Positions 1,258-48,669 of a stretch of DNA of 64,000 bases are shown here, piece after piece. The notes beneath the pieces are model-generated. The model did not search any database and was not told the origin of the DNA. It saw nothing but the letters and a program-made list of their open reading frames with translations. Position numbers and translations under genes: made by a program. The stretch comes from Yuukianura sp. NJ FZ-2021 (taxonomy: Eukaryota). The number at the start of each line of letters is the position of its first letter. Position 1 is the first letter of the stretch. The DNA lies in contig CM102286.1 in NCBI GenBank assembly GCA_046563655.1, forward strand, positions 8,680,001 through 8,744,000, read 5' to 3'.

Positions 1258-3539
1258 GGCTTCGTAATTTTTTCTTACTTAAATTTTGTGCTTAAAATGC
1301 ATGTCAGTTAAGATGAATAAAAAGGCAGTTAATTAACATTCTTAATTGAGACTCTCTACAAAGAATTCTGACGGTGGCAACATCTCCTTTCATGTCACTT
1401 GTACCTTGTTATGAATAGCAGTGGACCTGATACAGCTTTTGTGTAACGGTTTATCGCAGCCTAAGATTTCGTTCAAAAAAATATTTCTCCACATGTATGA
1501 AACGGCATATCATCAAAGTTCTCCACACGACATTTGGCAGCAGCAAGGAATATGTAATATTTTACTTGCTAACAACACTCTCTTGTTTCCACTTTATTTC
1601 GATAGCAGTTCAAATCTACGGTGTAAGTTGGGCTTCGTAATTTTTTCTTACTTAAATTTTGTGCTTAAAATGCATGTCAGTTAAGATGAATAAAAAGGCA
1701 GTTAATTAACATTCTTAATTGCGACTTTCTACAAAGAATTCTGACGGTGGCAACATCTCCTTTCATGTCACTTGTACCTTGTTATGAATAGCAGTGGACC
1801 TGATACAGCTTTTGTGTAACGGTTTATCGCAGCCTAAGATTTCGTTCAAAAAAATATTTCTCCACATGTATGAAACGGCATATCATCAAAGTTCTCCACA
1901 CGACATTTGGCAGCAGCAAGGAATATGTAATATTTTACTTGCTAACAACACTCTCTTGTTTCCACTTTATTTCGAAAGCAGTTCAAATCTACGGCGTAAG
2001 TTGGGCTTCGTAATTTTTTCTTACCTAAATTTTGTGCTTAAAATGCATGTCAGTTAAGATGAATAAAAAGGCAGTTAATTAACATTCTTAATTGCGACGC
2101 TCTACAAAGAATTCTGACGGTGGCAACATCTCCTTTCATGTCACTTGTACCTTGTTATGAATAGCAGTGGACATGATACAGCTTTTGTGTAACGGTTTAT
2201 CGCAGCTTAAGATTGCGTTCAAAAAAATATTTCTCCACATGTATGAAACGGCATATCATCAAAGTTCTCCACACGACATTTGGCAGCAGCAAGGAATATG
2301 TAATATTTTACTTCCTAACAACACTCTCTTGTTTCCACTTTATTTCGATAGCAGTTCAAATCTACGGCGTAAGTTGGGCTTCGTAATTTTTTCTTACTTA
2401 AATTTTGTGCTTAAAATGCATGTCAGTTAAGATGAATAAAAAGGCAGTTAATTAACATTCTTAATTGCGACTCTCTACAAAGAATTCTGACGGTGGCAAC
2501 ATCTCCTTTCATGTCACTTGTACCTTGTTATGAATAGCAGTGGACCTGATACAGCTTTTGTGTAACGGTTTATCGCAGCCTAAGATTTCGTTCAAAAAAA
2601 TATTTCTCCACATGTATGAAACGGCATATCATCAAAGTTCTCCACACGACATTTGGCAGCAGCAAGGAATATGTAATATTTTACTTGCTAACAACACTCT
2701 CTTGTTTCCACTTTATTTCGATAGCAGTTCAAATCTACGGCGTAATGTGGGCTTCGTAATTTTTTCTTACTTAAATTTTGTGCTTAAAATGCATGTCAGT
2801 TAAGATGAATAAAAAGGCAGTTAATTAACATTCTTAATTGCGACTCTCTACAAAGAATTCTGACGGTGGCAACATCTCCTTTCATGTCACTTGTACCTTG
2901 TTATGAATAGCAGTGGACCTGATACAGCTTTTGTGTAACGGTTTATCGCAGCCTAAGATTTCGTTCAAAAAAATATTTCTCCACATGTATGAAACGGCAT
3001 ATCATCAAAGTTCTCCACACGACATTTGGCAGCAGCAAGGAATATGTAATATTTTACTTGCTAACAACACTCTCTTGTTTCCACTTTATTTCGATAGCAG
3101 TTCAAATCTACGGCGTAAGTTGGGCTTCGTAATTTTTTCTTACTTAAATTTTGTGCTTAAAATGCATGTCAGTTAAGATGAATAAAAAGGCAGTTAATTA
3201 ACATTCTTAATTGCGACGCTCTACAAAGAATTCTGACGGTGGCAACATCTCCTTTCATGTCACTTGTACCTTGTTATGAATAGCAGTGGACCTGATACAG
3301 CTTTTGTGTAACGGTTTATCGCAGCCTAAGATTTCGTTCAAAAAAATATTTCTCCACATGTATGAAACGGCATATCATCAAAGTTCTCCACACGACATTT
3401 GGCAGCAGCAAGGAATATGTAATATTTTACTTGCTAACAACACTCTCTTGTTTCCACTTTATTTCGATAGCAGTTCAAATCTACGGCGTAAGTTGGGCTT
3501 CCTAATTTTTTCTTACTTAAATTTTGTGCTTAAAATGCA
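1258..3539. repeat. 373-bp satellite array, block 1 (~6 monomers)
   Basis: The same sequence recurs every 373 bp (1421, 1794, 2167, 2540, 2913, 3286). Confidence 0.99.
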
Positions 3540-3824
3540 TGAAGTGAATTGGATGGTAGAGCGGATGTTGGTTTTTTGTATTTTATTATAAAACGTTAAT
3601 ACTTTAAATTATTTACATTTTATTGATTATTTTAATTAATAATCGAAAAGTGCAGACCATGCTGCTTGGAATAGAGAATTGAAGTGAAGAGGGCAGTTTC
3701 TCTGCTCATCTTCTTTTCACACTTTTTACACACTTTTTCTTAATTGCTATACACTATATCAAACACTTTTCGACAATTTGAAAGTGGCGCTTCCCATTTG
3801 AGAAGCGTCTCAAATGCCAAAACA
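3540..3824 (-). repeat. 3' LTR of BEL/Pao element
   Basis: TGAAGTGAATT...GCCAAAACA, a direct repeat of 12798-13082 with two substitutions seen by eye. Confidence 0.97.
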
Positions 3825-3833
3825 CCGCCCTCC
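3825..3833 (-). other. Polypurine tract
   Basis: GGAGGGCGG on the minus strand immediately before the 3' LTR. Confidence 0.8.
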
Positions 3834-4327
3834 ATTGAATGACTAGGTCATTCAATTTTGCACAAATAGAAAAAGAAAATGGCGACCAATTCTGGATACA
3901 TGCAAATGGAGGAAATAACCTAACCTGAACCGACGCCACTGGATTCGGTGGCTGAAGGTGGACTAGGCCTTCTTCCAGTTGCTCAGGCTGGAATTTCCGT
4001 TTGCTAGACCCTACCAGTATGTCTGAACATGAAAGATTACCCACACAATTACACAATCCAGAATTTAGTCACCTTACGTTCGGTAACTACTTTACTCGAA
4101 CGGAAGGTGTTTTAGCACATGATTTTTACCCCTAATTTTAATTTTGAAAAGAGATAACACTTAACACTAAAAGCCTATCTTAACACCTAGGTTATGATAG
4201 CTGGAAAAAGGCACTTAAATTCTAAGATTTTAAGTCTAACTTTAACCGAAAATTTTAAAGTTTGAATAATAAATGAATATTTTTGAAGTTTTACATTACA
4301 TTATTTACACATTTCCCTAGACTTACG

Positions 4328-4934
4328 CTACTCTGGTTCTAGTAGCTTGACAATTTTGACGATTGGACGAAGAAACACATGGTCCTTTACTTTGGATTGG
4401 CCTTTCTTGTCGATTTCTGTCGTCTTGTAGGTTACTTCCACTGAACGTACCAAATTGTCGTCTCCAGGGAATGTTTTGGTGATTCTGGCGAGTCTCCACT
4501 TCAACGGTGGAGTGTCGTCGTCTTTGATTAGCACAAGATCGCCAGTTTTGATGTTGTCAGCCTCATTTCGCCACTTGTTGCGTTGCTGGAGAAGGTTGAG
4601 GTACTCTTTCTTCCAGCGATTCCAGAAATGTTCCGACATCTGTTGAACTCGTTGCCATCTTGACAGTCGGTTTTCTTTCATCTCAGCCAGACTTGGTTCT
4701 GGAATGGCGAGTAGTGGCTTCCCGATGAGAAAGTGGCCTGGAGTCAGCGCTTCAACGTCATCTGGGTCACGAGATTTTGCACAAATCGGCCTGGAGTTGA
4801 GCACTGCTTCCACCATGGTCAGGAGCGTATGGAATTCCTCCAGTGTCAAAGTAGTCGATCCAACCACTCTCCTGAGGTGGTATTTGGCCGACTTGACTCC
4901 TGATTCCCATAGTCCACCCATGTGAGGCGCATCA
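4328..4934 (-). pseudogene. BEL/Pao integrase C-terminal part (split from pol by the Harbinger insertion)
   Basis: APHMGGLWESGVKSAK, LNSRP, LTPGHFLIG, FWNRWKKEYL, PPLKWRLARI and RPIVKI motifs. It joins in frame to ...WKFIPP once the insert and one TCA are removed. Confidence 0.95.
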
Positions 4935-5308
4935 GGCCTAGTTTCCATTACTCGGATAAGAGAGTAACTCTCCCAAATGAGTAATGGAAATGGGTAGGGT
5001 AACCCCTACTCATTTCCGTTTCCATTACTCACCTCGAAAGAGAGTAACTCACTTTCTTACCCGGATAAGTGGGTAAGATCTTATCCGAGTAGAACAAGTC
5101 GAGTAATGTAAACAAGGTAGGGAGTAGAAATTTGAAAATTGCGCCAAAATTAACATGTGCCTTGCTGCCCGGCAATTTACAAGATCAAAATTCCAGTTTT
5201 ATTCTCATGTTCACTCACTTCTGAAACGAAACTAATCAGTTCTGTTCTACTGTTTCGGTTTATACGGGTTTTTGTTAATTAATTGTTCTTATTTAGTTAA
5301 TTACGGCA

Positions 5309-6215
5309 ATGGAGGGTGGCAAATACTTTCAAAGTAGTGAAACGAAGTACCTAGTAAAACTGTTTTGCGATTCTGATTGGCAAAAGAAGTTTGAAAATCA
5401 TAAAAAATCGCAAAAGCATGTTTGGCAAGAGCTATCAGCTGAACTTGAACAACAAAATGGAATACAGCGTACAGGGGAACAATGCCAGAACAAGATCAAG
5501 AACTTGAAGAAGGAGTTTTTCAAACTGAAGAGGTCACCAAGTGGTTCGGGTCAAATTGAGTGGCCTTACTATGAAGACTTTGCAAAAGTTTTTGGTGGAA
5601 GTGCGCTACTCAATCCAGTCATGGTTATCGATTCGCTGGAATCTTCAGAAAGGTATGCAACATAAGTTACTCAGCTCGAACTTTTGAAAATAAATGGTTA
5701 AATGTGAACTTAATTTTAAAAATTGCAGTGACGTCACGTCTCAAGACGAAAGCGAGTACAGTTTGTCGCTTGTATCTGAAGACGATACCGACCCAGTTTT
5801 TCAACCGGAAGCATATACTGACCGTCCCTCTACATCAGCTTCAACAATCAACTTGGATCGTGCTAAACTGAATTCGTAAGTTTCATGTAAATCTTGCCGA
5901 AGCGCATTCAACCGGCAAAAATTATACTGTGTTTTTTTACGACACAGGAAAAAACGTAAGAACGCAGCAGCTCAGATCAACGAGTATCTGAGGAAGACTG
6001 AGGAGTCTGACAAGCGAGATCAGGATGAAAAGAAGAAGATGGACAATGACTTGCTACTTGAAATGAAAAAAATGAACGAAAACATGGCCGACTTGATTGC
6101 CCTTAAAAGACAGAAGTTAGAACAACCACCGATGTTCCAACTACCCTACTTCCAACCTCCGTCTCCCAATCCTCCAAATCCAAAAACAGCTTCGACACGG
6201 AAATCAAGTCACTAA
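5309..6215 (+). CDS. Harbinger Myb/SANT-like (trihelix) DNA-binding protein; predicted exons 5309-5652, 5729-5875, 5948-6215
   Basis: VWQELS..RTGEQCQNKIKNLKKEF..WPYY trihelix signature. The GT-AG introns keep the frame, giving an acidic linker and a coiled-coil-like C-terminus ending at TAA 6213-6215. Confidence 0.88.
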
Positions 6216-6308
6216 ATACTTTTATATCCACATAAGTTTAACAACACAAATGCAGTGGGTAATAAATATTACTTATCCCTACACCATTTAAGTAGTAAGT
6301 TGAATTGT

Positions 6309-7640
6309 TTAGAGCAGCTGATTTGCAATATCTGTTCTTTTTCTGTTCCCTTGTGCTCGAGCATGGTTCTGGTTTGGGGCATTGAAATTGTGTTGTTGTG
6401 GCTGTGGAAAACGATTGTCGAATTCCTCAACTCGTTTCAGCCACCCTTCAACGAAGATTTCCTTGTTTTCTTCAGCAATGTTATGTAGAATACAGCAAAC
6501 TTGGACGCATTTGACAAATTTAGTCAAATTCCAATCGCAGCGTCTCAGGAGAATACGAAAACGAGCTGTAATTTGATAAAAATAGAGGATTACTAAATTG
6601 TACTTGTAAATAGAAAAATTTAGACACAACTCACCTTTTAATCTCCCAAAAGCACACTCGACAGTCATTCTCGCTCGTGACAAACGGTAGTTGAAGTTGG
6701 ATTCTCCAGCATTGACCCCATGTAGTGGATAAGGCTTCATGATTTTTATCGACAACGGGAAAGCAGAATCAGCAATCAAATGATATGGTGCTCGAATTAT
6801 ACTTGTATCCTGGCCAAACTTAGAACTTCCCCATGCAGCTCCGTCGTTACATTTCCCAGGTTGACCAACATTGATCCAAAGAAATCTGTATACCAAATAC
6901 AAAAGAAAAACAACATTTTAAAAACAGATTATGAGCAAGTTTAAGTCTATAGTTAATTCTAACTTTCTTAACCTGGAATGGCTGTCCACAATTCCAAGCA
7001 AAATGATGGAGTGCCATCCTTTGTAGTTATAATAGTCAGCTCCATTTTCATCCGGAGTTAAGATCGGGATGTGCGATCCGTCCAGTGCTCCCACGCAATC
7101 CGGAAATTGATAATTCTCTTCAAACTCATTAGCTGTTTGTCCTTGATCATTTGCACTCATAGGAAACTTGATTTTGATTTTGTAGAAGCGTTTGATAATG
7201 GCGTCAAGAAACTCATCTAGAATTCTACACACTGAAGTTTTGGAGACACCAAACACGTCCGCGACAACTGAGTAGTCTGATCCCGATTTTAAAACGTAAA
7301 TTCCAATCGCAACACGCTTAATGACACTAATTGGTTCCCTCAGAACGTGTTGCTTGGTTAATTCGGGCCTCAAGTCTTCTACAAGTTCGTAAAACGATGC
7401 TTTGGAAAATCGGAACTTTTTTGAAAAAATATCGTCCGGAAGATTTAGTGTTTCTTCAAGAAAAACGCTGGACTTAACAAAGGTCCAAACTCTAGGTCTG
7501 GCTTTCTCGGGTTTCCATTCCTCCCATAATTTCTTCAAGGTCAGCAATGCTCGTCGTCTGGTTCGATGGGATTTAGCGTTTGAACGGCGGTTAATTAACT
7601 TTGAAATGATTAAGGCTTGAGAAATGATTAGTGTACTCAT
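6309..7640 (-). CDS. Harbinger (HARBI1-like) DDE transposase; predicted exons 7640-6973, 6885-6635, 6565-6309
   Basis: FRFSK..F, HTH-like VADVFGVSKTSV, VGALDGSHIPI (D), YYNYKGWHS, IADSAFP (D), RMTVECAFGRLKARFRIL (E) and CCILHN. Two frame-preserving GT-AG introns. Confidence 0.92.
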
Positions 7641-7848
7641 TTTTGACAACTTTTTGAAAGATAACTTCAGTTTTTGATATTTCACAATTTGAGTTTGGAA
7701 AAACCAAATTCGGTTTCCCGCAAAACCATCACATGCTAAAACGGCTCCAATTTCAAATTCTACTCTCTTAAAAATTTCGTTGGAACGGAGTACAATTCTA
7801 TCCGGGTCGTATCCGGATAACTTTTACCCGAGTAATGGAAACGTAGGG

Positions 7849-10800
7849 TCAGGAGGAATGAATTTCCACTGTATTCCTGAAACACATAAAAAATCAACGA
7901 CTTTAGTGTCATGAATTATTTTTAGCCACTCTGCCATTTCATTAGCAGCGCCCACAAAGTTTTTGCCATTGTCAGAATGAATGACAGACACAAGTCCTCT
8001 CCTGGAAATGAATCTTTTAAGGGTGGCAATGAACGCTGCAGTGGTCAAATCAGTTACGGGTTCCAAATGGATTGCCCGTGTTGCAAAGCAGACAAACACA
8101 CAAAAGTAGCCATCAAATTGTCGCTTGCCACGCCCGTATTTTTCCTGCAGCTTAATCGGACCTGCGTAGTCGACACCACAGTGTGTAAATGGTGGAGAGG
8201 GAGTTACTCTCGCCTTTGGCAAAGATCCCATCAGTTGTTCACTGGCTCTGGCTCGAAGTCTTTTGCACTTTAGGCAGTCTCTGACCACCTGTCGAATTGT
8301 GACTCGCGCACCCACAATCCAAAACTTTTTTGACACATTTGCCCACAACAACTGATAATTGGCATGTAAATAAAATTGATGATAGTGTCTTACCATGAGT
8401 TTGGTGAAATAATTATGACCTGATAGTATGATGGGGTGGCATTGGTCACTCGGAAGATCTGACTTTTGGAGTCTCCCTCCAACACGCATGACTCCATGAC
8501 TGTCTAAAAATGGATGAAGCGATTCCAATGCACTTCCTTTCCCCACGCAATTGTTTTTCGTCAAGGCCAGTATTTCGTCACTGTAGTCGTCTCCTTGCGC
8601 TACTTTGACGCACATGAGGAAGGCTCGGTCAGTTTCTTCAACTGTCAAGTCACCAGTAAGCCTCTCCCCCTGTTTCAAATTCCTGCAATTGGAAACAAAT
8701 CTAATGGCATATGCCACTGCACGGTTAAGCCTCACATAATTTGAAAATCTTTTCATCATGTCACGATCAATTATGGCCAAATTCACGTTTACCTTTCGTA
8801 ATTCCAGAAGTTCAGAGGGGTCACTTACTTTCCCTTCTGACTCAAACACTGGTAAATCTGGATTTTTTAGCCAGTCTGGGCCACACCACCACAAATTTGA
8901 ACTTACAAGTTCTTCTGCAGAAATTCCACGAGTCCCTAAGTCTGCTGGATTATCGATTCCAGGAACAAAATTCCAGGAACTGACAGGAATTACTTCCTGT
9001 ATCTCGGAAATACGATTAGCCACAAAAGTAACAAACTTACGACTCGTGTTACGCAGCCACTTAAGTACCGTTTCACTGTCGGTCCAAGTGATGATTGTGC
9101 AGTTGAGACGAGTGGCTTCCATCACCTTGGGAATCAATTTCGCCAGAAGTAGAGCACCACACAACTCGAGTCGTGGTAGGCTGATCTGCTTCATAGGAGC
9201 CACTTTCGTCTTTGATGCGATTATGTTGGTAGTGACCCGACCATTCCTCTGAATTGAACGGACGTATACTACCGCACAGTAGGCCAGTTCCGATGCGTCA
9301 CAAAATCCATGAATTTCAACGATTTCTGGAGAACCTGAGAACAAACACCTAGGAACAGTTAGACTTTTTATGTTTTGGACACTTTGGACATAGTCATGCC
9401 ATTGTCCGACTAGGTCAGGGGGAATCTCATCGTCCCATGACAAGATCCCATTTTCCTTTCCCTGCACTGGTGACCACAAAACCTGAAAATAAACTTTGAT
9501 TTTAACAGTTAGGGGAGACAAAAAACCAAGTGGGTCAAACACTTTTGACATCGTGGACAAGACCGTCCTCTTTGTGACCACGCCCACTGGTTTTGGAGTG
9601 TAACCTTTAAAATGAAAGTAGTCACCTCCACTGTCCCAACACACTCCTAAAACTCTGTCAAAGTCAGCATCACAAGTAATCACGTCATTTTTTCCACGGT
9701 TTACCTTAGGAATGGAGTTTAGAACCTCCTTTGAATTCGAGTCCCACTTCGTAATTTCAATGCAACCGAGACGTAAAAGTCCTTCCAGCTCCGTCACGAG
9801 TTGATTGGCCTCTTGGACAGTCTTAGCTCCTCCCATCAAGTCGTCCACGTAAAAATTTGACTTTAAAACCTCAGCAGCCTTTGGAAATTTGTTCTTTTCG
9901 TCTTCGGCTAATTGCTGGAGGCATCTGACGGCGTGAAATGGGGCGGAGCTTGTGCCGTATGTCACCGTTTGAAGTTCAAATTCACCAATTTCATCACTTG
10001 GTGTTGCACGCCAGAGTATCCGTTGTTTTCTCTGGTCAGTTTTGTCCACGAGGAATTGACGGTACATTTTAACAATGTCCGCCTTAAGTGCAATCAGATT
10101 GGTCCTAAAAAACAACAAATGAGAAAAAATATCAGTTTGAATAGTCGGACCAATTAACAAACACTCATTCAAAGACACATTATTAGACGTTCTGGCAGAT
10201 CCATCAAAAACCACCCGAAGCTTGGTAGTGGTACTTGTGTCTTTTAACACAAAGTGGTGGGGCAAGTAGTTTGTCACTCCAATGACCTCACCCTCCTCCG
10301 ACTTGGTCACTCGACTCATGTGGCCAAGTTCCTCGTATTTTGACATAAATTGGAGATACTCGTCCTTGTACTGAGGAAACTTTTGCAAACGTTTTTCGAT
10401 TCCCATTAATCGACTTACGGCCGTGTCCCGTGACGAGCCCAATTTGTCACAATCGGTTTTGAATGGTAATTTTACCACATACCTACCACTCTCAGTTCTG
10501 GAGTGGTTGACCACGAAATGTTGCTCTGCCAGTGCCTCCTCTTTAGTGTACACAGGCCGAATTGGGACACTCTCAAGTTCCCAAAATTTTTTCACATATG
10601 ATTCACACACAGAAGTACAAAAATTGACACTTACGTTTTTTGTAGTGCTTACCGGGCCAGATATGACCCACCCAAATTCAGTTTCCTCAGCGATGGGAAG
10701 ATTGAGGCTACTTTGGACCTTCTTACCAGTCTTCAATCTGGCCACAAATTCACTGCCAAGTAGAATGTCCACATCGCTGGGCTGAAGATAGGCTGGATCT

Positions 10801-11201
10801 GCCAGTTGCAAATTTTTTAAGTGTGGCCAATCAGTGTTTTTGACAAGGAACGAGGGCAGCGTACCTGTAACTTTGTTGAAAACTAAAGCACACACATTAA
10901 GTTCAAACTCATTAGCTTTAGATTTGACACAAAAGTTGGTCTCTCCCAGTGCTCTCTCGACCTTGGTTCCTGAAATGCCTGTAATGGTTACATTAGCACG
11001 ATGTTTTTTAAGACCCAATTTTTTGACACACGACATGGAGATAAAGTTTGATTCAGACCCTTGGTCCAAAAGTACACGACAATTTTGGTAATCTCCAAAA
11101 GAGTCCATTACACTCACCACAGCTGTAGCCAAAATCACACGAGCACTGGAACAGTGCAGTGCTGTGGTTGAAGTAGAGCTTTTCTCCTCCTTTGTATCCA
11201 C
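7849..11201 (-). pseudogene. BEL/Pao pol: protease, RT, RNase H, integrase N-terminal part
   Basis: LLDQGS (protease); KLRVVFDGS, ADIVKMYRQ and FYVDD (RT); HGFCDAS, PRLELCGA, WTDS and NPAD (RNase H); HHCC zinc finger, GVDYAGP and SDNG (integrase). Confidence 0.96.
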
Positions 11202-12511
11202 GGCTGGGGTTTGGGTTTTTTCTCATAGTGGAGCAGTGTATTATGTCGTTTTTGACATTTTGCACATTTAAATTTTGAATTACACTTGCTCTCACCGTGA
11301 CCAGCCCTGAGACAACAGAAACATAAATTTTTAGACTTTACAAATTTCTCACGTTCGTCGACTGCCATGGAGTTGAATTGTTCACATTTGAACAGTGAAT
11401 GTTCTCCTCCGCATTTTGGACATGCGACTTTATAGGACGATTGATGTGACTTTTTCTCAGTGGGTTTGTCTGCCGTCTTTTTCTCACTGTGACCCGATTT
11501 TTCTGAGCCAACATTTAACCCACGAAGGTGATCTTCCAGAAAGTCCTTGACCTCGCTAAATTTTGGCATCTGCGTACCTTTGAAATGGCGGGTCCACTCA
11601 CGTTTTGTTTCAACCGAAACTTTTTCTAAAATCAAAAAAATCAGAAAAGAGTCCCACTTGTCCACAGGCTCCTTCAACACCTGAAGTGACCTGATGGACT
11701 GATTAAAAACATCAAGCAACTTCCGTAGTGCTTGTGCGGACTCATTAGCAATTGGTTTGAAATTCACAATATTTTTCAAAAATGAAAATATGATTTGGCG
11801 CGGGTTTTCATACCGCTCTTTGAGGCTGTCCCATGCCTCTTCAAAAGTCCCATTGCTCAAATCGAAGTACTTGAGCGCTTCTTCAGCCTCACCCTTCAGC
11901 GTAGACTGGAAATATCCCAGCTTCTGGCTTCCAGTCAAGTCAGGATTATTGACAATGTAAGTCAAAATTTAATCCTTGTAGGACAGCCAGTCTCCGTATT
12001 TGCCATTGAAAGTTGGAAGTTCCAGCTTCGGCATGTTCACTTTCATTTTTCCAGATGTTGAGCCTCCACTAACCTGGGACTCAAAAGAAATCAATCTTAG
12101 ATTTATTGCATCCAGAAACTTATCACACACATTCAATTCCGCAGCCTGCGCGCGTATTTGCGTTTCGTCGTCGCAGTTCATGTACACATCGCTGCGCAAT
12201 TCACTTAGCCTTGTTTCGAAACCCTCAAGTTTCTTTCGTTCCATCGCCATCCTGGGCTTGGATACAAGGGTGGGAGTTGTGCTGTACTCCTCCACTTTTT
12301 GCTGAAAATACTGGAGGTCAAAGTTGAAACCTCTAATGGCCTTTACCATTCTCTGCATGTTTTCAGACTCCACACTTGGTAGTGACACGCTCAGCATTGA
12401 TTTCGAGCCAGTCGGCTTGACCTGACCTTGACCTTTTGCTGCAGCCACCTTACTCTCTTGTTCTTGGTCAGACATGGCCAAAGACGATTCTTTGGCTTTC
12501 TTCCTGGTCAA
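11135..12511 (-). pseudogene. BEL/Pao gag, with an in-frame stop at 11969-11971
   Basis: PKLELPTFNG, LKGEA, LKERY, then CPKC..HSLFKC, CFCCLRAGH..C and CAKC..HNTLLH knuckles. The two ORFs share a frame and are separated by one TAA. Confidence 0.92.
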
Positions 12512-12787
12512 CAGTTTGTCAACTTTGATTAATTTTACTCAAAAAGAGCCACACACGATAAGTTAGACAATTACTGTTGCCACACACACATATGTCATGA
12601 CCGAAGACTCAAGATTACACAAATATACAATGACACAATGATTAATTCATTAACACATTTGTTCAATTGACACCTTTGAACTCACCTAAGTTAACTGTTA
12701 CGTTAGTTAACGATTACCAAAATACCGCATGCTTCATCCTTTGATGATCAGTTGGTTGTCGTTCGTTGTCCTGACGAAAACCAGTCG

Positions 12788-12797
12788 TTCGGCACCA
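12788..12797 (-). other. Primer-binding site, probably tRNA-Phe
   Basis: TGGTGCCGAA directly after the 5' LTR on the minus strand, complementary to the 3' end of animal tRNA-Phe (UUCGGCACCA). Confidence 0.75.
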
Positions 12798-13082
12798 TGA
12801 AGTGAATTGGATGGTAGAGCGGATGTTGGTTTTTTGTATTTTATTATAAAACGTTAATGCTTTAAATTATTTACATTTTATTGATTATTTTAATTAATAA
12901 TCGAAAAGTGCAGACCATGCTGCTTGGAATAGAGAATTGAAGTGAAGAGGGCAGTTTCGCTGCTCATCTTCTTTTCACACTTTTTACACACTTTTTCTTA
13001 ATTGCTATACACTATATCAAACACTTTTCGACAATTTGAAAGTGGCGCTTCCCATTTGAGAAGCGTCTCAAATGCCAAAACA
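12798..13082 (-). repeat. 5' LTR of BEL/Pao element
   Basis: Direct repeat of 3540-3824, adjacent to the PBS. Confidence 0.97.
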
Positions 13083-14585: not shown

Positions 14586-15205
14586 TATGAGGAGGTAGGG
14601 TCCTCACGGGCCGCCACAAAGGGCACCCGGAATGAGAGGTCAATGGACGGGTCACGGGAGTGACCCGGAACAATAAATCCGACGTGGAATGGGCGGATAA
14701 TGGGAAACAAAAGGATCTTACGTTTATTTTGAAAGAATCAATGAAAAAACGAAAAAAAGAACCAAATGGTAGTGTGCAGTGGTTGGTGGGTCTTGTCCAG
14801 TGCTTTGTGGGTCTTGTCCAGTGCTTGGTGGGTCTTGTCCAGTGCTTGGTGGGTCTTGTCCAGAGCGGCGTGGCAGCCAAAAATGGCGGACGGAAAAGTT
14901 GGAGTGGAGAGACGTGGATCCGGACTGGACAACTGGCAGCCGAAGACTGAAGAAGAAGTGGGAAGTGGGATTCTGCCTGTTCACAGGCAGAAAGTTCTCG
15001 AATGTTCTGGAAGGTGGTTTGGGGGATTCGGCGATGGGGGAAACACACGGCGGAGTGGGAAAAACGCCTTGTCATGTTCCTTTGCAGGAGCATGGCAAGG
15101 GCTAGCGGGGGAAAATACAGGACTTGGGGTGGAGTCTTGGTTTCATAAGAAACCAAGACTAAAAAGAAATGATTTTCGGACGGGAGAGGGAGTAACCTCC
15201 TCACA
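14586..15205 (-). mobile_element. ~620-bp solo-LTR-like element (Gypsy-like), copy 1
   Basis: 4-bp TSD TCAG; termini TATGAGGAGGT...ACCTCCTCACA (minus strand TGT...ATA); minus-strand AATAAA at ~14723-14728; four internal 21-bp tandem repeats (GTGGGTCTTGTCCAGTGCTTG); no credible ORF. Confidence 0.75.
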
Positions 15206-19683: not shown

Positions 19684-20301
19684 TATGAGGAGGTAGGGTC
19701 CTCACGGGCCGCCACAAAGGGCACCCGGAATGAGAGGTCAATGGACGGGTCACGGGAGTGACCCGGAACAATAAATCCGACGTGGAATGGGCGGATAATG
19801 GGAAACAAAAGGATCTTACGTTTATTTTGAAAGAATCAATGAAAAAACGAAAAAAAGAACCAAATGGTAGTGTGCAGTGGTTGGTGGGTCTTGTCCAGTG
19901 CTTTGTGGGTCTTGTCCAGTGCTTGGTGGGTCTTGTCCAGTGCTTGGTGGGTCTTGTCCAGAGCGGCGTGGCAGCCAAAAATGGCGGACGGAAAAGTTGG
20001 AGTGGAGAGACGTGGATCCGGACTGGACAACTGGCAGCCGAAGACTGAAGAAGAAGTGGGAAGTGGGATTCTGCCTGTTCACAGGCAGAAAGTTCTCGAA
20101 TGTTCTGGAAGGTGGTTTGGGGGATTCGGCGATGGGGAAACACACGGCGGAGTGGGAAAAACGCCTTGTCATGTTCCTTTGCAGGAGCATGGCAAGGGCT
20201 AGCGGGGAAAATACAGGACTTGGGGTGGAGTCTTGGTTTCATAAGAAACCAAGACTAAAAAGAAATGATTTTCGGACGGGAGAGGGAGTAACCTCCTCAC
20301 A
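19684..20301 (-). mobile_element. Solo-LTR-like element, copy 2
   Basis: Near-identical to copy 1, with the same TCAG TSD and monomer position. Confidence 0.75.
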
Positions 20302-20678
20302 TCAGTTAAGATGAATAAAAAGGCAGTTAATTAACATTCTTAATTGCGACGCTCTACAAAGAATTCTGACGGTGGCAACATCTCCTTTCATGTCACTTGT
20401 ACCTTGTTATGAATAGCAGTGGACCTGATACAGCTTTTGTGTAACGGTTTATCGCAGCCTAAGATTTCGTTCAAAAAAATATTTCTCCACATGTATGAAA
20501 CGGCATATCATCAAAGTTCTCCACACGACATTTGGCAGCAGCAAGGAATATGTAATATTTTACTTGCTAACAACACTCTCTTGTTTCCACTTTATTTCGA
20601 TAGCAGTTCAAATCTACGGCGTAAGTTGGGCTTCGTAATTTTTTCTTACTTAAATTTTGTGCTTAAAATGCATGTCAG

Positions 20679-21297
20679 TATGAGGAGGTAGGGTCCTCAC
20701 GGGCCGCCACAAAGGGCACCCGGAATGAGAGGTCAATGGACGGGTCACGGGAGTGACCCGGAACAATAAATCCGACGTGGAATGGGCGGATAATGGGAAA
20801 CAAAAGGATCTTACGTTTATGTTTAAAGAATCAATAAAAAAAACGAAAAAAGAACCAAATGGTAGTGTGTAGTGATTGGTGGGTCTTGTCCAGTGCTTTG
20901 TGGGTCTTGTCCAGTGCTTGGTGGGTCTTGTCCAGTGCTTGGTGGGTCTTGTCCAGAGCGGCGTGGCAGCCAAAAATGGCGGACGGAAAAGTTGGAGTGG
21001 AGAGACGTGGATCCGGACTGGACAACTGGCAGCCGAAGACTGAAGAAGAAGTGGGAAGTGGGATTCTGCCTGTTCACAGGCAGAAAGTTCTCGAATGTTC
21101 TGGAAGGTGGTTTGGGGGATTCGGCGATGGGGGAAACACACGGCGGAGTGGGAAAAACGCCTTGTCATGTTCCTTTGCAGGAGAATGGCAAGGGCTAGCG
21201 GGGAAAATACAGGACTTGGGGTGGAGTCTTGGTTTCATAAGAAACCAAGACTAAAAAGAAATGATTTTCGGACGGGAGAGGGAGTAACCTCCTCACA
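20679..21297 (-). mobile_element. Solo-LTR-like element, copy 3 (variant)
   Basis: Same termini and TSD, with clustered differences at ~20821-20877. Confidence 0.75.
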
Positions 21298-22420: not shown

Positions 22421-23038
22421 TATGAGGAGGTAGGGTCCTCACGGGCCGCCACAAAGGGCACCCGGAATGAGAGGTCAATGGACGGGTCACGGGAGTGACC
22501 CGGAACAATAAATCCGACGTGGAATGGGCGGATAATGGGAAACAAAAGGATCTTACGTTTATTTTGAAAGAATCAATGAAAAAACGAAAAAAAGAACCAA
22601 ATGGTAGTGTGCAGTGGTTGGTGGGTCTTGTCCAGTGCTTTGTGGGTCTTGTCCAGTGCTTGGTGGGTCTTGTCCAGTGCTTGGTGGGTCTTGTCCAGAG
22701 CGGCGTGGCAGCCAAAAATGGCGGACGGAAAAGTTGGAGTGGAGAGACGTGGATCCGGACTGGACAACTGGCAGCCGAAGACTGAAGAAGAAGTGGGAAG
22801 TGGGATTCTGCCTGTTCACAGGCAGAAAGTTCTCGAATGTTCTGGAAGGTGGTTTGGGGGATTCGGCGATGGGGGAAACACACGGCGGAGTGGGAAAAAC
22901 GCCTTGTCATGTTCCTTTGCAGGAGCATGGCAAGGGCTAGTGGGAAAATACAGGACTTGGGGTGGAGTCTTGGTTTCATAAGAAACCAAGACTAAAAAGA
23001 AATGATTTTCGGACGGGAGAGGGAGTAACCTCCTCACA
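22421..23038 (-). mobile_element. Solo-LTR-like element, copy 4
   Basis: Near-identical to copy 1, with the same TCAG TSD. Confidence 0.75.
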
Positions 23039-23332: not shown

Positions 23333-24426
23333 TATAATAGCGAAGCTATTATGATAAAAGAGGTTTGTCTGTCTGTCTGTCTGTCCGTCTGTCTGTCCGT
23401 CTGTCTGTCCAGATTAATTATCTCAGAAACTACTCGTCCGATTTGATTCCGGTTTTCACCAGTGACCATGTCATGAGCCGGGCTTGGTCACTATTGAATA
23501 TGACCCCCGGGTGTCAACTCCTTCCGGGTCAAAGGTCAAGGTCAACCGGTTTTATCCCTGGTAACTGGGAAAATGACCTCTACAAAAGTTGTTCATCTCA
23601 TCGAGGGGAACAACTTTTGTGTGTAATGTGTGACCCTAGGTCACCTGCTTCCGGGTCAAAATCGATTTCAAAGGTCATTTGTAATGCAAGTGTGTGTAAC
23701 AAAAACTCTGCTTGTGAGACTGGAAAGGCAATTGGCATGGGACTTGGTTCTCTGCTTAGCAAAAAATCTATTACGCAGTTGACATATACACTTTACACAC
23801 TCATGCACTGTGTCCACCGGGTGTCACCTGTCACTTGCCGGGTGTCACCTGTCACCTGTTAATTGCCGGGTGTCACCTGTCACATACCAGGTGTCACCTG
23901 GCAGTTGCCGGGTGTCACCTGTCACCTGTCACTTGCCGGGTGTCACCTGTTAACTGCCGGGTGTCACCTGTCACATTCCGGGTGTCACCTGTCACTTGCC
24001 GGATGTCACCTGTCACCTGTCACTTGCCGGGTGTCACCTGTCACGTGCCGCGTGTCACCTGTCACATTCACGTGTCACTTGCCGCGTGTCACCTGTCACC
24101 CTCACGTGTCACTTGCCGGGTGTCACCTGTCACGTCTCACCTGTCACCTGTCACGCCTCAGCTGTCACGTCTCACCTGTCACCTGTCACGCCTCAGCTGT
24201 CACGTCTCACCTGTCAACACCCCCTGGGGGGGCGGGAAAGTGGGGGAACACACCCCCACGCTTTCTGGGGTGCGGAGCAAAAAAGCGGGAAAACACATCC
24301 CCACTCCCCCGGCGGGGCGGGAAAGTTGGGGGAACACACCCCCGCTTTCTTGGAGGGGGGGCTTCAGTGTGATTAACAAAACTGCCCTATTCTTCGCTAT
24401 TATCATTATGGGCGGTTTACAACCGG
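23333..24426 (+). mobile_element. DINE-1/HINE-like non-autonomous Helentron (ends ambiguous by ~5 bp)
   Basis: 5' subterminal IR ATAATAGCGAAG within a palindrome, (GTCY)n microsatellite, central tandem repeats, 3' subTIR CTTCGCTATTAT followed by hairpin CGGTT-TAC-AACCG, and a T-rich insertion site. Confidence 0.8.
23815..24217. repeat. Minisatellite of TGTCACC / GCCGGGTGTCACCTGTCACTT units inside the Helentron-like element
   Basis: Degenerate 7/21/28-bp tandem units. Confidence 0.92.
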
Positions 24427-24969: not shown

Positions 24970-27900
24970 TCATGTCACTTGTACCTTGTTATGAATAGCA
25001 GTGGACCTGATACAGCTTTTGTGTAACGGTTTATCGCAGCCTAAGATTTCGTTCAAAAAAGGTTCTGTTTTGTCGCTGAGGGTTCTCAGCATAGTTTTTG
25101 AGTCCTTATAATCCTTGCTGATGCTCCATCTCTTTTCGTGACGCATCTTAGCCCATCTGCTAATGGCAGTATGAACTGTGCGCATCGAAATCGGTAGAGC
25201 GGGTGCAGGACCATAGAACGGTATATTTGTCGCCTCTTTTGCTAGCACGTCAACAGTCTCATTCCCTTCATACCCGCTATGAGCTGGTATCCAGTGAACT
25301 GTAACTTGTCTAGTGTTAGCTAGGTTGTTCAAAGCGTCAAAACACTCTCTGAGCATGCCAGTTTGAATCCACGGGCTTCTCAGGCTGTCTAGTACGCTCA
25401 ATGAGTCGACGTAGATATTCGCGGGAAGCACATTCCTTTCGAGAATCAGTTTCTCCGCAGCACTTAGCAAAGCAAAGACTTCCGCCTGGTAAACAGTCGG
25501 ATGTTCTCCCAATGCTAGCCTATACTTCCTTGCAGGTCGGTTGGGGGCTACGATGTAGAACGCTGCTCCCGACCTGCCATCGATGCGTGAACCGTCGGTA
25601 AAACAGTGCAGGGCTTCTTTTGGCAGACCTTGCTTGGAGTTTTCTGCCCATTGTTCCCTTGAGCATACTTTTATTTCAAAGAATCTCTCGGTGGGCAGAA
25701 CGTTATGAGTCTCGCAGGGGAATCCCATTTCTGGTATTTCCCCTGCGTTTGATTCACAAATTTGAGCGTGGGTTCGCGTTTTCAGCGTGTTAACCCTTGC
25801 TGGTATCCAGTCCCCTGACAGTTTCAGTCGATACATTGTTCGGACTGCTACTGACTGGAGCTCTATATCCATTGGTCTCAAGTTCAAAAGAGCCTCCATT
25901 GCGGCCGTTGGTGTTGATCTCATCACGCCAAACGTTGCCAGCAGAGCCGCTCTTTGTACTCGGACTAATGGTTTTATAGTATTTGGTTTACATGCAGCCT
26001 CAGTCCAGACCACCGCCCCGTAGGTTAAGGTTGGCCTCACTACAGCTTTGTAAATCCAATTTGTGTACTTTGGAGAGAGTCCTTGCGTTTTTCCAATAGC
26101 GCGTTTGCACTGGGCTAGCGCAATGGAAGCTGCTGTTGCTCTCCTTTGTACGTGAGTTGTCCATTGTAGCTTGTCATCTAGAGTAACCCCTAGGTAACGT
26201 ACCACTTTGGAGTATCTTATTTCTACCTCCCCAACTGTGAGAGGTATAAGTTTTGTGTTTCGTTTTCTGGTGAACAGAATGGCTTCCGCCTTATCCCCGC
26301 ATAGACCTAAATCTATGTCTGGGCGGCAGCACCACTCTAGCACCTTGTTTAATGCCTGTTGCGTAATGCTGACAATAGTGGAATAATCAATCCCCACTTG
26401 GAGGAGACCCAAATCATCAGCAAAAGCCTGGCTTAGTAGTTGTGGAAATTGCTGGTTTAGTGATACGAGCAACTCACTTACCAGCAGAATCCATAGGAGA
26501 GGAGAGAGTACTCCGCCTTGTGGGCAGCCCCTCTCTACGATGCTTTCTGCGGATTCGTCCTGGAGTTCACTGACGACTGTGCGGGTCATCAGCATGTGCT
26601 GGACAACCCGGATGCAGCCGTCGTCCAGGCGCTCCCTCCGCATTGCAGCAATCATAGAACGAAAAGTCGCATGGCTAAAAGCTCCTTCAATGTCAAGGAG
26701 CACTGCCAGCGCGTACTGTTGATTGCGTAATGCTTGCTCTGCAAGACTGACAAATCTGTGCAGCGCAAGCTCAGTCGACGCTCCTCTGAGATACGCACAT
26801 TGCTTAGCAGCTTTAAGTCTTTCCACAATTGTAGGAGACCTGAGGTACCAGTCAATGAGTCGCTCGAGGACTTTTAAAAGAAATGAAGTTAGTGATATCG
26901 GCCTCCAAGAGTTAGCCTTACCATAACTGCTTTTGCCTGGCTTGGGAATGAAAACAGCCTTGGTTCTCCTCCAACTGAGCGGAATATAACCAAAGCGTAA
27001 ACACGCCCGCATGATTTTCCCAAGTATAGGGGTTAGCGTCTTCCGTCCTTCAATTAGCATTCCCGGAAAGATGTTATCCGGGCCTGCAGCCTTGTATGGA
27101 TTGAAAGTCTTTAACACCCTGTCTACTGTGGCGTCATTTGCCACTTCCTTTACGACGGGGCCGTCGTTTGGAGTGTGATCGTGTGGAAACTCCACCTTGG
27201 TAGGGTCTGGAGGGTAATGTTTATGAAGGAGATATTTTATCGTATCCGCGGCCCCCTCCGTGTAAGATCCGTCGGGGAGTTCAATCGGACCAAGTTTGAT
27301 CGTCTTTCCTCCCGCTAGGACTCTGTACAGCCTGGCGGCGTTGGGTAACGTCTTTATCCCTTCACAATACAAGTGAAAAGCAAACTGCTTTGCGTCGCGC
27401 AGTTTGTACAGAAAAGCACGACGAGCTACTCTGTGTTCTTCTGCGCTAGCAGTAGTGAACCCACTTCCAACCATCCGCCTTTGCTTTTTCCGAGCCTCCT
27501 TGCGAAGCTCCGTAAGCTCTGGCGTCCAATAGTTGTGTGTGGGTCCTTTGTTCCTAACCTTCTTCTCAGGACAGGCTTCATGAAATGCTTCCACAAGAAC
27601 TCTTGTGACACGTTCGACCCGTGTCTCAAGTTCGTCAAGTGTTTGTATTTCAGTGCCCGGAAGTTCCCTGAGGTTGTTCTCTATAGTCGCCGAGAAAAGA
27701 TCCCACTGGGTTTTCCTCTTATTCCTATAGAAGATGGGCTTGGGTTTTCCAAGTTGTATGGTGAACCGTATGGTTCTGTGATCCGAGAACGAATCAGCTG
27801 TATCCACTCGCCACCCATTTATCCTGTCTAGGAGACTTGTAGAGGCTAGGGATATATCCAAAACCTCTTGTCTGCTCCTAGTTACAAATGTTGGCTTGTG

Positions 27901-28476
27901 ACCATGGTTTAGTAAGGCCATGTGCGTCCCAACTAGCCAGTCGAGGAGGGAGTTCCCGCGCTCATTCGCGTCTGAACTACCCCAGAATGGGTGATGGGCG
28001 TTGCAGTCCGTCCCTACTATTAAAGGAATGGCATGAGAATGACAAAACTCCACCAGTTCGCTTAGAGCGGTAGGTGGAGCCGCTTCAGTCTCATGCATAT
28101 ACACTGAGGCAAATACCACAATGGTATCATGCCATGTAGTTTTTATGGCCACACAGTCACCATTCGAGAATTGTGACAGTAGCCATGATTTAACATTTGA
28201 CGACGTAAGAACACATGCTCGCGGCCTGCAGTCCTTATCATTTGCTGTATATACTTCATATGATCCAAAACCTAGTACTTGGTCTATCCTTGTCCATGGT
28301 TCTTGAATTAATGAAATAAATGTTTGCACATGTGCCAAGCTCCGCCCCAGCGATGCTGTTGCAGCTTGGGACCTGTGCAAATTTATTTGTGTGATAGGTA
28401 TAGATATAATCCTTACATTACTATTAGGTCTCCCTAGAAGATGAAATGAATGATTAGAACTTGCCATATTACACAT
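24970..28476 (-). CDS. LINE ORF2: AP endonuclease, reverse transcriptase, RNase H; last ~30 codons read from satellite
   Basis: QINLHRS, LIQEPW, GTDCNAHH and SFSDH (APE); WRPISLTS, LDIEGAF, PQGGVLSP, FADD and YLGV (RT); FTDGS, YQAE, YVDS and WIPAHSG.EGNE (RNase H). Confidence 0.95.
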   Translation of the reverse strand: MCNMASSNHSFHLLGRPNSNVRIISIPITQINLHRSQAATASLGRSLAHVQTFISLIQEPWTRIDQVLGFGSYEVYTANDKDCRPRACVLTSSNVKSWLLSQFSNGDCVAIKTTWHDTIVVFASVYMHETEAAPPTALSELVEFCHSHAIPLIVGTDCNAHHPFWGSSDANERGNSLLDWLVGTHMALLNHGHKPTFVTRSRQEVLDISLASTSLLDRINGWRVDTADSFSDHRTIRFTIQLGKPKPIFYRNKRKTQWDLFSATIENNLRELPGTEIQTLDELETRVERVTRVLVEAFHEACPEKKVRNKGPTHNYWTPELTELRKEARKKQRRMVGSGFTTASAEEHRVARRAFLYKLRDAKQFAFHLYCEGIKTLPNAARLYRVLAGGKTIKLGPIELPDGSYTEGAADTIKYLLHKHYPPDPTKVEFPHDHTPNDGPVVKEVANDATVDRVLKTFNPYKAAGPDNIFPGMLIEGRKTLTPILGKIMRACLRFGYIPLSWRRTKAVFIPKPGKSSYGKANSWRPISLTSFLLKVLERLIDWYLRSPTIVERLKAAKQCAYLRGASTELALHRFVSLAEQALRNQQYALAVLLDIEGAFSHATFRSMIAAMRRERLDDGCIRVVQHMLMTRTVVSELQDESAESIVERGCPQGGVLSPLLWILLVSELLVSLNQQFPQLLSQAFADDLGLLQVGIDYSTIVSITQQALNKVLEWCCRPDIDLGLCGDKAEAILFTRKRNTKLIPLTVGEVEIRYSKVVRYLGVTLDDKLQWTTHVQRRATAASIALAQCKRAIGKTQGLSPKYTNWIYKAVVRPTLTYGAVVWTEAACKPNTIKPLVRVQRAALLATFGVMRSTPTAAMEALLNLRPMDIELQSVAVRTMYRLKLSGDWIPARVNTLKTRTHAQICESNAGEIPEMGFPCETHNVLPTERFFEIKVCSREQWAENSKQGLPKEALHCFTDGSRIDGRSGAAFYIVAPNRPARKYRLALGEHPTVYQAEVFALLSAAEKLILERNVLPANIYVDSLSVLDSLRSPWIQTGMLRECFDALNNLANTRQVTVHWIPAHSGYEGNETVDVLAKEATNIPFYGPAPALPISMRTVHTAISRWAKMRHEKRWSISKDYKDSKTMLRTLSDKTEPFLNEILGCDKPLHKSCIRSTAIHNKVQVT

Positions 28477-30333
28477 TATGGAATTTGTTTATTTGTAACA
28501 AATATCCCCCCATATAAAATGTTAACATTGTTGACATGTTTGTTGGGGGTGGTTACTGGGCCGTACCCTGTTTACCGTTACCAGTACCCTTAGGTGCTGG
28601 GCCCGGTTTTGTTTTATTCTGTGCGCTAGGCGAGCGCTTGCGCTTCCGTTCAGCACCAGAAACCCTGACGTGAAAGTTTAGGGTGCCCAGTGCGTAGTGG
28701 GTGCGCATGTGCATCGCCTTTAGCTGTTTATAGGACTCCTCGCCCGATCGTAGGCAAAGGGTGAACCCTTCGGTACCCGGGGCAAGAAAGTCCAACTTCC
28801 AGCTCGCAGTATCTAGTTTGTTTCTGCTCTGCAGTTTTACTGCAGAGCAAAATTTTTGAAAATCAAAGTCTTTGGAATCCTCATCTGATATCCAGCACCG
28901 GAGTTTTATTTCCGGATTTGGATTTTCAGACGAAGAGACCTTGACATGGAACTTTCCGTTGCTTATTGTTCGGAGGATTAGCCTAACCCTCGACACCGTC
29001 TCTTCGTCGGCACACCTTACCACAGCAAGGTCACCGACTTTAGAGACTCGGTCAATTTGTAGACCAACCTCCTCGTATTTCAGAACTTCCGACTGGAGTT
29101 CCTTCTTCATTGTAATGAAGTCGGCATCTGAAAGCTCTTGTTTCCCGTTGTCTACAGTGTAAACATGCAGGAACAGTGCTTTCTTTGCCGACTCCAAGTA
29201 AGGTACGGCCTTCACTCTTTTAGTTTCTGGACTTGGGTTCGACCCGGATGTAGAGCTGGGGGTAAGATCCTGTCTTTTAGTTTTCTCCCCTCGAGTTCGA
29301 TTAGAGCCGGAACTACTTGCAGTTGGTTGAGTAGTAGCAGTTTGCGGATTCCTGGTGGCAACATTTGTCAGTAAGGCAGTGACTGCCGCAGACGTAGTAG
29401 CTGGATTCATTGTGGCATCATTTGTCCCAGGGGCAGTGACTGCTGAGCTGCTCGTGTTTTGTTCGGTTTCCGAATTGTTAGCAGGAAGTGTCGAACCAGA
29501 ATTGTTAGATCCTGCTTCCAGCTTCCTTCGTTGTTTCCGCTCCTTAGCCTTTTGCTTCGCTCGCAGTTTTTTAGCCTTCACTCGTTCGGCTTTTTCTTCT
29601 TCAGTTTCCGTGCGTCTGCTTGTGGAAGTTAGCGCAGTTGATGTTGATGTAGTTGCTGTTGCTTCTTCCGGATTTAAGTTTTCAGATGTTGGTGTTGGTG
29701 GCAACGGTGGCAACGGTGACGTTAGAGTTGGCATAGGCGGTGGAGTTGGAATTGATAGATAAGTGGAGTGAGACGATGATGGGCTGGTTTTCAATTGACC
29801 TTGACCTTCTTCTTTTTCAGAGTCTGGATCAGTTAGTAGGTGTTTTTCTTCATCACTTGTGATTTCCATGATCTCACCGTCATCTTCATCCGCACTGTTT
29901 ATGTTTTTGTCAATTTCCATTACTGCAGGCGATGGACCTGTGTGTAAAGAATTGACAGTTAAGTACCCTCTCCTTCTAACCCCCGTTCCCCTTCTAGACA
30001 GGTACCCCCTTCCAGCGATTCCTCTCGGTGACCTTTGTTCGATTAGTAGGGGCCTTAACTGGTCCCCCTCTTGTCTACGCTGGAACACCCAGGAATCATC
30101 TGTTTGGTTTGCCTTGTCCGGCATGGAGAAACTGTGGTCGAAGTATCAGGGTACTTTGCTATGTAATTTATCGTTGTACTTACCACTATTATGTGTCGAA
30201 GTACTCCTGGTGAGGTCCTCTTCACGTAGTGGGTAGTATCGTGTTGATCGGTGAGCGATTAGTTGATTAATTAATCAATTAAGTCTTAAGCTTAATTTAG
30301 CACACCTTCTCTCTTCGAGTTCCCGCGCTCCCT
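25061..30333 (-). mobile_element. Non-LTR retrotransposon, LOA/Lian-like (APE-RT-RNase H), complete ORF1, 3'-truncated
   Basis: Two long ORFs on the minus strand; no 3' UTR, tail or TSD; satellite monomer positions ~61-194 are missing across the insertion. Confidence 0.92.
28553..30124 (-). CDS. LINE ORF1 (gag-like; C-terminal domain resembles DUF4780)
   Basis: 523 aa with a low-complexity S/T/P and basic N-terminal half and a globular C-terminus (W..L.L...EES...L....YALG..F). It lies directly upstream of ORF2. Confidence 0.85.
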   Translation of the reverse strand: MPDKANQTDDSWVFQRRQEGDQLRPLLIEQRSPRGIAGRGYLSRRGTGVRRRGYLTVNSLHTGPSPAVMEIDKNINSADEDDGEIMEITSDEEKHLLTDPDSEKEEGQGQLKTSPSSSHSTYLSIPTPPPMPTLTSPLPPLPPTPTSENLNPEEATATTSTSTALTSTSRRTETEEEKAERVKAKKLRAKQKAKERKQRRKLEAGSNNSGSTLPANNSETEQNTSSSAVTAPGTNDATMNPATTSAAVTALLTNVATRNPQTATTQPTASSSGSNRTRGEKTKRQDLTPSSTSGSNPSPETKRVKAVPYLESAKKALFLHVYTVDNGKQELSDADFITMKKELQSEVLKYEEVGLQIDRVSKVGDLAVVRCADEETVSRVRLILRTISNGKFHVKVSSSENPNPEIKLRCWISDEDSKDFDFQKFCSAVKLQSRNKLDTASWKLDFLAPGTEGFTLCLRSGEESYKQLKAMHMRTHYALGTLNFHVRVSGAERKRKRSPSAQNKTKPGPAPKGTGNGKQGTAQ

Positions 30334-48300: not shown

Positions 48301-48669
48301 AATAAAAAGGCAGTTAATTAACATTCTTAATTGCGACTCTCTACAAAGAATTCTGACGGTGGCAACATCTCCTTTCATGTCACTTGTACCTTGTTATGAA
48401 TAGCAGTGGACCTGATACAGCTTTTGTGTAACGGTTTATCGCAGCCTAAGATTTCGTTCAAAAAAATATTTCTCCACATGTATGAAACGGCATATCATCA
48501 AAGTTCTCCACACGACATTTGGCAGCAGCAAGGAATATGTAATATTTTACTTGCTAACAACACTCTCTTGTTTCCGCTTTATTTCGATAGCAGTTCAAAT
48601 CTACGGCGTAAGTTGGGCTTCGAAATTTTTTCTTACTTAAATTTTGTGCTTAAAATGCATGTCAGTTAA
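30334..48669. repeat. 373-bp satellite array, block 3 (~49 uninterrupted monomers)
   Basis: 371-374 bp periodicity with few variant sites. Confidence 0.99.

Follow-up and report, generated by a model that had tools for sequence, protein, structure and literature searches.

Do transposable elements (TEs) of unrelated classes enter a tandem repeat at any point along its unit, or do they favor one part of it? This question is raised by a 64,000-nucleotide stretch of the genome of Yuukianura sp. NJ FZ-2021 (GenBank assembly GCA_046563655.1, contig CM102286.1, positions 8,680,001 to 8,744,000 of the forward strand; hereafter, the window, with positions counted from its first letter), in which an array of a 373-bp satellite is interrupted by a BEL/Pao long terminal repeat (LTR) retrotransposon, a short LTR-like element, a Helentron-type element, a long interspersed nuclear element (LINE), and a KolobokE-type DNA transposon. 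Six junction sites fall within a single 92-bp segment of the monomer (positions 173-264), and the only site outside it is the 3' break of the LINE, at position 60. The clustering is nominally non-random. Judging from the sequence, we consider it close to an even bet that the clustering reflects a real but modest regional insertion bias, stemming from accessible DNA, in a young array that was hit by five independent TEs.

Insertion junctions along the 373-bp monomer

The satellite, delineated with Tandem Repeats Finder and a BLAST search of the monomer against the window, forms nine segments, all on the + strand, that sum to 29,800 bp (~80 monomers). The mean identity to the consensus is 99.6%, with a minimum of 98.1% (59 full-length monomers), a uniformity which indicates that the array is young or strongly homogenized. 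Monomer coordinates were assigned by setting position 1 at window position 1421 and aligning the segments to the consensus of the 59 full monomers. A first-pass annotation of this DNA had reported the same junctions; each of its positions was reproduced by BLAST and consensus alignment, and the alignment also confirmed that six sites lie inside the segment and one outside. The satellite landmarks and the inserted elements are the following.

1258..3539, + strand: satellite segment 1, with monomer position 211 at its left edge (the array start, window 1258) and the left ATGCA copy at its right edge
1593..1684, + strand: reference copy of the 92-bp segment, monomer positions 173-264
3540..13082, - strand: BEL/Pao LTR retrotransposon, with pol domains, LTRs, and a target duplication; ATGCA flanks at 3535-3539 and 13083-13087, monomer positions 250-254
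14586..15205, no strand assigned: LTR-like non-coding element, copy C (the four copies are 618-620 bp long); TCAG flanks, monomer positions 257-260
19684..20301, no strand assigned: LTR-like element, copy D, at the identical monomer site to copy C
20679..21297, no strand assigned: LTR-like element, copy E, at the identical monomer site to copy C
22421..23038, no strand assigned: LTR-like element, copy F, at the identical monomer site to copy C
23334..24426, + strand: Helentron-type non-autonomous element (HINE-like), non-coding, 1,093 bp; TTTATT on both flanks (173-178), the satellite stopping at 178 and restarting at 173
25061..30333, - strand: LINE, with open reading frame (ORF) 1 at 28553-30145 and an ORF2 encoding endonuclease, reverse transcriptase (RT), and RNase H; the satellite stops at 60 (3' break) and restarts at 195 (5' junction)
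30334..48669, + strand: longest unbroken satellite stretch, 49 monomers
48670..53550, - strand: KolobokE-type DNA transposon, 4,881 bp, with GG..CC termini; TTAA flanks at 48666-48669 and 53551-53554, monomer positions 261-264

The reference copy of the 92-bp segment contains TTTATT (173-178), ATGCA (250-254), TCAG (257-260), and TTAA (261-264), and three of the entries, those of the BEL/Pao, LTR-like, and Kolobok elements, fall within 15 bp, at monomer positions 250-264. The right end of the array cuts the monomer at position 278 and coincides with a run of 100 N (54315-54414), an assembly gap that joins the 373-bp array to an array of a 128-bp satellite; the true right end is unassembled, and this edge was not counted as a junction.

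The four copies of the LTR-like element enter the count once because they are flanked identically, match one another at 98.4-99.7%, and have in common a minority variant, 306G, which lies 49 bp downstream of each copy and is present in 13 of the 59 full monomers. They are better explained as one insertion that would have been amplified with the array by unequal exchange, and the shared 306G flank upholds the way in which they had been counted at first pass. Four independent, site-specific insertions were considered as well and dropped, given this flank.

The five TE events are independent, as they occupy different monomers that are kilobases from one another. With a uniform circular null, six events fall within an arc of no more than 88 bp with P = 0.004-0.005, the five TE events do so with P = 0.016, and six of seven junctions share the arc with P = 0.023; for three events within 11 bp, P spans 0.011-0.085 as n goes from 4 to 7. 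Target motifs were accommodated in a conditioned null, in which the TTAA element was placed only at the six TTAA sites of the monomer (three inside the segment) and the Helentron-type element only at one of the 50 TT sites (19 inside), with the remaining events drawn either uniformly or weighted by local AT content. Run on the events of the window, a null of this kind, which the first-pass annotation had proposed, leaves the clustering in place, with nominal P values of 0.005-0.033 (arc), 0.030-0.109 (trio), and 0.002-0.011 (arc and trio jointly). Motif conditioning barely shifts P, and therefore motif availability, including that of the TTAA sites in the AT-rich part of the monomer, does not explain the clustering. 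The remark that all TTAA sites lie in that part holds insofar as the six sites (232, 245, 261, 282, 286, and 295) are all located within 232-298, but only three of the six are inside 173-264.

The edge of the array and the public reads might add one more event. Satellite sequence was found in contigs of four public runs (X1-X4), all of which contain a joint that goes back 373 letters when compared with window positions 1421-1793. A single read contig, the only such contig in the four runs, leaves the satellite after window position 1635, that is, at monomer position 215, and its continuation is absent from the window. Contigs drop rare branches and variants, so that the scarcity of other junctions in X1-X4 says nothing. 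The array start at 211 and this array end at 215 overlap by 5 bp, and an overlap of 3-6 bp has a chance of ~1% at a random position; the sequence suggests that they may mark either side of a sixth insertion, its 5-bp duplication lying at 211-215.

The left flank itself (1-1257) carries an open frame of 307 aa (1-924) that runs off the window start and encodes a protein with an acidic tail rich in Ser, Glu, and Asp. This ORF product matches no Pfam family above the curated cut-off, the only trace being a weak, sub-threshold similarity to BSP_II (E = 0.0078), and no homologue was found among longer proteins or those of similar length. An AT-rich 3' region follows the ORF and ends, at the satellite boundary, in a short direct repeat (ACAAGACTG, present twice).

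Identity of the inserted elements

The classification of the elements bears directly on the claim that unrelated enzymes are involved. The class label BEL is borne out by the Peptidase_A17 (E = 1e-47), rve (2.2e-08), DUF1759, and DUF5641 domains, together with the LTRs and the target duplication; Pfam searches additionally identified Integrase_H2C2, and the RT is present as well. The LTRs are ~284 bp long, of the TG..CA type, located at 3540-3823 and 12799-13082, and differ by 2 mismatches over 282 aligned bp; the LTR ends are TGAAGTG ... AAAACA, and the 5-bp duplication ATGCA is found on both sides. Between the rve core and the DUF5641 tail of this element, positions 6309-7823 hold PIF/Harbinger-like ORFs, which encode DDE_Tnp_4 and HTH_Tnp_4 domains. 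These ORFs sit inside the BEL pol and therefore constitute a nested insertion. A pair of terminal inverted repeats (TIRs) at 5017-5030 and 7830-7843 was considered to delimit the nested DDE_Tnp_4 insertion and was rejected, its flanks being without a matching duplication.

The LTR-like element (termini of copy C, TATGAGGAGGT ... ACCTCCTCACA) has TA..CA ends with an 11-nt imperfect inverted repeat, and its target duplication is TCAG or TCAGT. The first-pass annotation had labeled it a solo LTR. The TCAG duplication at 257-260 stands, but the label was given by appearance only, and the ends are TA..CA rather than TG..CA; no full-length relative of this element was found inside the window. Together with its flanking 306G monomer, the insertion is present in four copies that are 12, 1, and 3 monomers apart (14586-23038). 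The insertion was amplified with the flanking monomer, and the TE therefore now belongs to a higher-order satellite repeat.

The Helentron-like label is matched by the layout of the 1,093-bp element, which follows that of the HINE/DINE-1 elements described in PMC4067079. Such non-autonomous Helentrons are characterized by subterminal inverted repeats of ~13 bp, a 3' stem-loop, a microsatellite, tandem repeats, and a T-rich target (PMC4067079). The element in the window has 15-nt subterminal inverted repeats (arms at 23331-23345 and 24392-24406, 93% complementary), a 5' hairpin at 23328-23358 as the nested 5' inverted repeat, a (TGTC)n microsatellite at 23366-23410, central repeats of 21, 28, 70, and 91 bp at 23816-24216, and a 3' stem, CGGTT-tac-AACCG. 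Its insertion site, TTTATTT, is T-rich. In contrast to HINE/DINE-1, for which PMC4067079 reports no target modification, there is an apparent duplication here, TTTATT being found on both sides; it could be a 5-6-bp duplication or else the element's own T-rich end, pairing in the 5' hairpin.

For the LINE, endonuclease, RT, and RNase H domains were all identified in ORF2 (Exo_endo_phos_2, 1.1e-20; RVT_1, 2.6e-23; RNase_H, 1.2e-12), in agreement with its original label, as is the frame that continues across the 3' junction. ORF2 remains open across position 25061 into the satellite, down to 24970, and no stop codon, 3' untranslated region, or tail is present at this left junction; the 3' end of the LINE is therefore missing. 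Between the LINE flanks, 134 bp of monomer phase (61-194) are lacking. This arrangement indicates that the 3' end of the LINE and the original target were removed by a later deletion. The break is located at an A7 tract (monomer positions 55-61) that is length-polymorphic in the array, at least 13 monomers having lost 1 or 2 bases there (for example, at window positions 16123, 31313, and 32802), and these deletions explain almost every monomer of 371 or 372 bp.

The 4,881-bp element, annotated as Kolobok at first pass, was assigned to the KolobokE type by its TTAA duplication, GG..CC termini, and a DDE domain followed by a YqaJ nuclease, the layout described in PMC9587614. In that source, KolobokE elements combine a TTAA duplication and 5'-RR..YY-3' termini with a DDE transposase and a downstream lambda-exonuclease-like PD-(D/E)xK nuclease, and Kolobok and MuDR are related superfamilies (PMC9587614). 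TTAA flanks the element on both sides, the uninterrupted monomer having one TTAA there, and the termini start with GGACGG and end with AGAGCC. A frame of 763 aa (ORF 49461-51752) encodes a protein that matches PF20700, "Mutator-like transposase" (E = 2.8e-73), and, at residues 516-667, downstream of the DDE domain, the YqaJ nuclease (PF09588; E = 7.6e-12). The likeness to KolobokE in duplication, RR/YY termini, and domain order is a match by description, not to reference families. Unlike Kolobok, the element is without clear TIRs beyond GG/CC, and its best Pfam model is the Mutator-like transposase; among the 25 longest of the 38 inverted pairs in 48640-53600, there is no terminal pair, and only the GG/CC match was found by eye. 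Keyword literature searches pairing Kolobok with YqaJ, or with TTAA and the Mutator superfamily, found no papers.

Accessible DNA, chance, and other explanations

The AT-richest part of the monomer is 217-300, with 71-77% AT in 31-bp windows, and it encompasses all six TTAA sites, a T6 tract, and the only ATGCAT palindrome of the monomer (position 250), in which the BEL/Pao duplication ATGCA lies. A modest bias would arise as follows. A young, uniform array was struck by the BEL/Pao, LTR-like, KolobokE-type, and Helentron-type elements and the LINE, and perhaps by a sixth element at the left flank. Within the unit, accessibility or deformability is probably highest at positions 217-300, which might be, for example, a linker flanked by two positioned nucleosomes, and enzymes needing to bend or open the target would have a higher rate of success there; the events at 173-215 would then be on the upstream shoulder of this part. 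We infer that the bias would hold genome-wide and that accessibility would be its cause. The first-pass annotation had proposed that phased nucleosomes or a bound protein may expose one such landing site.

Several observations weigh against this view. There are 5-6 events, and the data used for testing are those from which both the arc and the trio had been drawn up; the nominal P overstates the real significance because the statistics are post hoc and many other patterns could have been reported. When the count is confined to the four events with duplications, the uniform null gives P = 0.053. The true target of the LINE, at its 3' junction, is lost, and, with contigs dropping rare variants, junctions elsewhere in the monomer may go unseen. 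The composition of the 92-bp segment differs little from the rest (68% AT vs 63% elsewhere), and the sequence around the events at 173-178, 195, and 211 is average in composition. In 15- and 21-bp windows, flexible TA/TG/CA steps are as dense at 250-264 as anywhere in the monomer, but several other places tie with this maximum. A search inside the monomer detected no half-repeat of ~186 bp of the sort that would hint at two equivalent nucleosome units, and there is no ~10-bp periodicity of AA/TT/TA/AT among the top spectral peaks, the strongest of which are at 13.3 bp and 12.0 bp.

Much of this speaks for chance combined with ordinary target preferences, under which the TTAA element would be bound to 232-298 and the others would follow weak, unrelated preferences of their own. 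We regard this as the less favored account, albeit one with substantial probability. The sample is small and the statistic was picked after the fact, P stands at 0.053 for the four duplicated events and 0.03-0.11 for the trio, the segment is barely distinct in composition, its flexibility peak is not unique, and scanning 64 kb for oddities will meet a nominal P of ~0.01 now and then. Against chance stand the conditioned P values, which hardly differ from those of the uniform null both for the arc and for the arc and trio together, and the sole extra junction found in the reads, which is also inside the segment, at position 215. On present evidence, bias and chance are not separable, the odds being about even.

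A stronger version of the accessibility argument appears rather unlikely. It would have a monomer of dinucleosome length expose in chromatin a single landing pad of ~90 bp to at least five unrelated element classes. Such a pad would serve a retroviral-type integrase, DDE cut-and-paste transposition, rolling-circle transposition, and target-primed reverse transcription alike and, by analogy, would be the satellite counterpart of the 28S ribosomal DNA (rDNA) zone, a parallel that we likewise consider doubtful.

There is little likelihood that the element families recognize the satellite sequence itself, with their sites neighboring one another by coincidence. The presence of the LTR-like element at the identical TCAG four times would fit such targeting, as would the precedent of Pokey, which inserts at one TTAA although the rDNA unit has more than 30 (PMC3849761), and the status of tandem repeats as a known refuge for site-specific elements (PMC10946416). 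However, the LTR-like copies are better explained by one amplified insertion, as the 306G variant indicates, every other family is seen once, so that specificity is not demonstrable, and no element has further copies in other parts of the window.

That insertions land everywhere and survive only outside a functional part of the monomer, as the first-pass annotation had suggested in proposing that selection protects the rest of the unit, is highly improbable: selection of this kind, with only conserved non-essential sites keeping insertions, has been argued for rDNA (PMC10946416), but here the loss of one monomer should be neutral because there are very many near-identical copies, ~80 in the window alone, one interrupted monomer among them should carry no cost, and unequal exchange removes insertions whatever their monomer phase.

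If the bias is real and common to the classes, the phase of TE junctions would report the chromatin organization of a satellite without a chromatin assay, and if the landing pad exists, junction phase would be a sequence-only read-out of nucleosome positioning. A real bias would also help to explain the seeding of TE islands in satellite arrays and centromere-like regions. If the clustering is due to chance, the locus is still a clean case of a young satellite array colonized by five element classes, with one insertion then amplified.

Known systems, occurrence of the satellite, and the adjacent repeat

The closest parallel is the zone of the 28S rDNA used by R1, R2, other R elements, and Pokey, where, as in the window, unrelated element classes occupy fixed, neighboring sites of a tandem unit. 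The R1, R2, and Pokey sites are no more than roughly 100 bp apart. The two cases differ in that specificity in the 28S rDNA emerges from hundreds of independent insertions across species into a conserved, functional gene, whereas in the window each family is represented by one event and the repeat that was hit is a non-coding satellite. Pokey is a piggyBac-type element for which a single TTAA is used (PMC3849761), and a review expects few landing sites, and possible hotspots, within rDNA monomers (PMC10946416).

A preference for phase within a monomer exists in alpha satellite: a retroviral integrase variant favors positions 6 and 69 of the alphoid monomer, neither of which is close to a known binding motif (PMC8933506). 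There, a single enzyme was followed through thousands of experimental events, with integrations at nearly every position (PMC8933506), as opposed to several enzyme classes and a handful of natural events in the window. Nesting of LTR retrotransposons shows a weak bias toward palindromes as well as a link to nucleosome occupancy (PMC6911290), and the BEL duplication within the ATGCAT palindrome resembles this pattern. The nesting study differs in being a statistical treatment of plant elements nested in other retrotransposons (1,491 pairs), and its abstract makes no mention of satellites or DNA transposons (PMC6911290). A search of PMC11735389 with six terms found no passage on integration phase within the repeat unit. 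A few keyword-based literature searches returned no landing zone in a non-coding satellite that is common to several TE classes, a negative that does not prove absence.

In three runs of one organism, words of the satellite rank among the deepest, and its k-mer depth reaches thousands in X1 and X2, a depth that is not a copy number. In the run labeled as a second organism, a 403-letter contig wraps round the monomer, with 12 differing letters over 338 aligned. Soil and outdoor metagenome runs (X5-X7) contain only small shares of the sampled words, from which no habitat is read. Exact-pattern scans gave 0 matches for two monomer stretches against metagenome contigs and 0 matches each for one monomer stretch against prokaryote genome contigs and viral contigs. 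Among the matches listed by a keyword literature search on a 373-bp satellite monomer, no paper is, judged by title and abstract, apparently on this repeat.

Beyond the assembly gap, the second satellite, which is unrelated to the first, has a 128-bp unit and occupies 54415-62626 and 63567-63997 (~67 copies, 93% matches). It is interrupted by a 940-bp element (62627-63566) that is flanked by TA on both sides and has TIRs of ~27 nt that start with CAGGGGGGGG.

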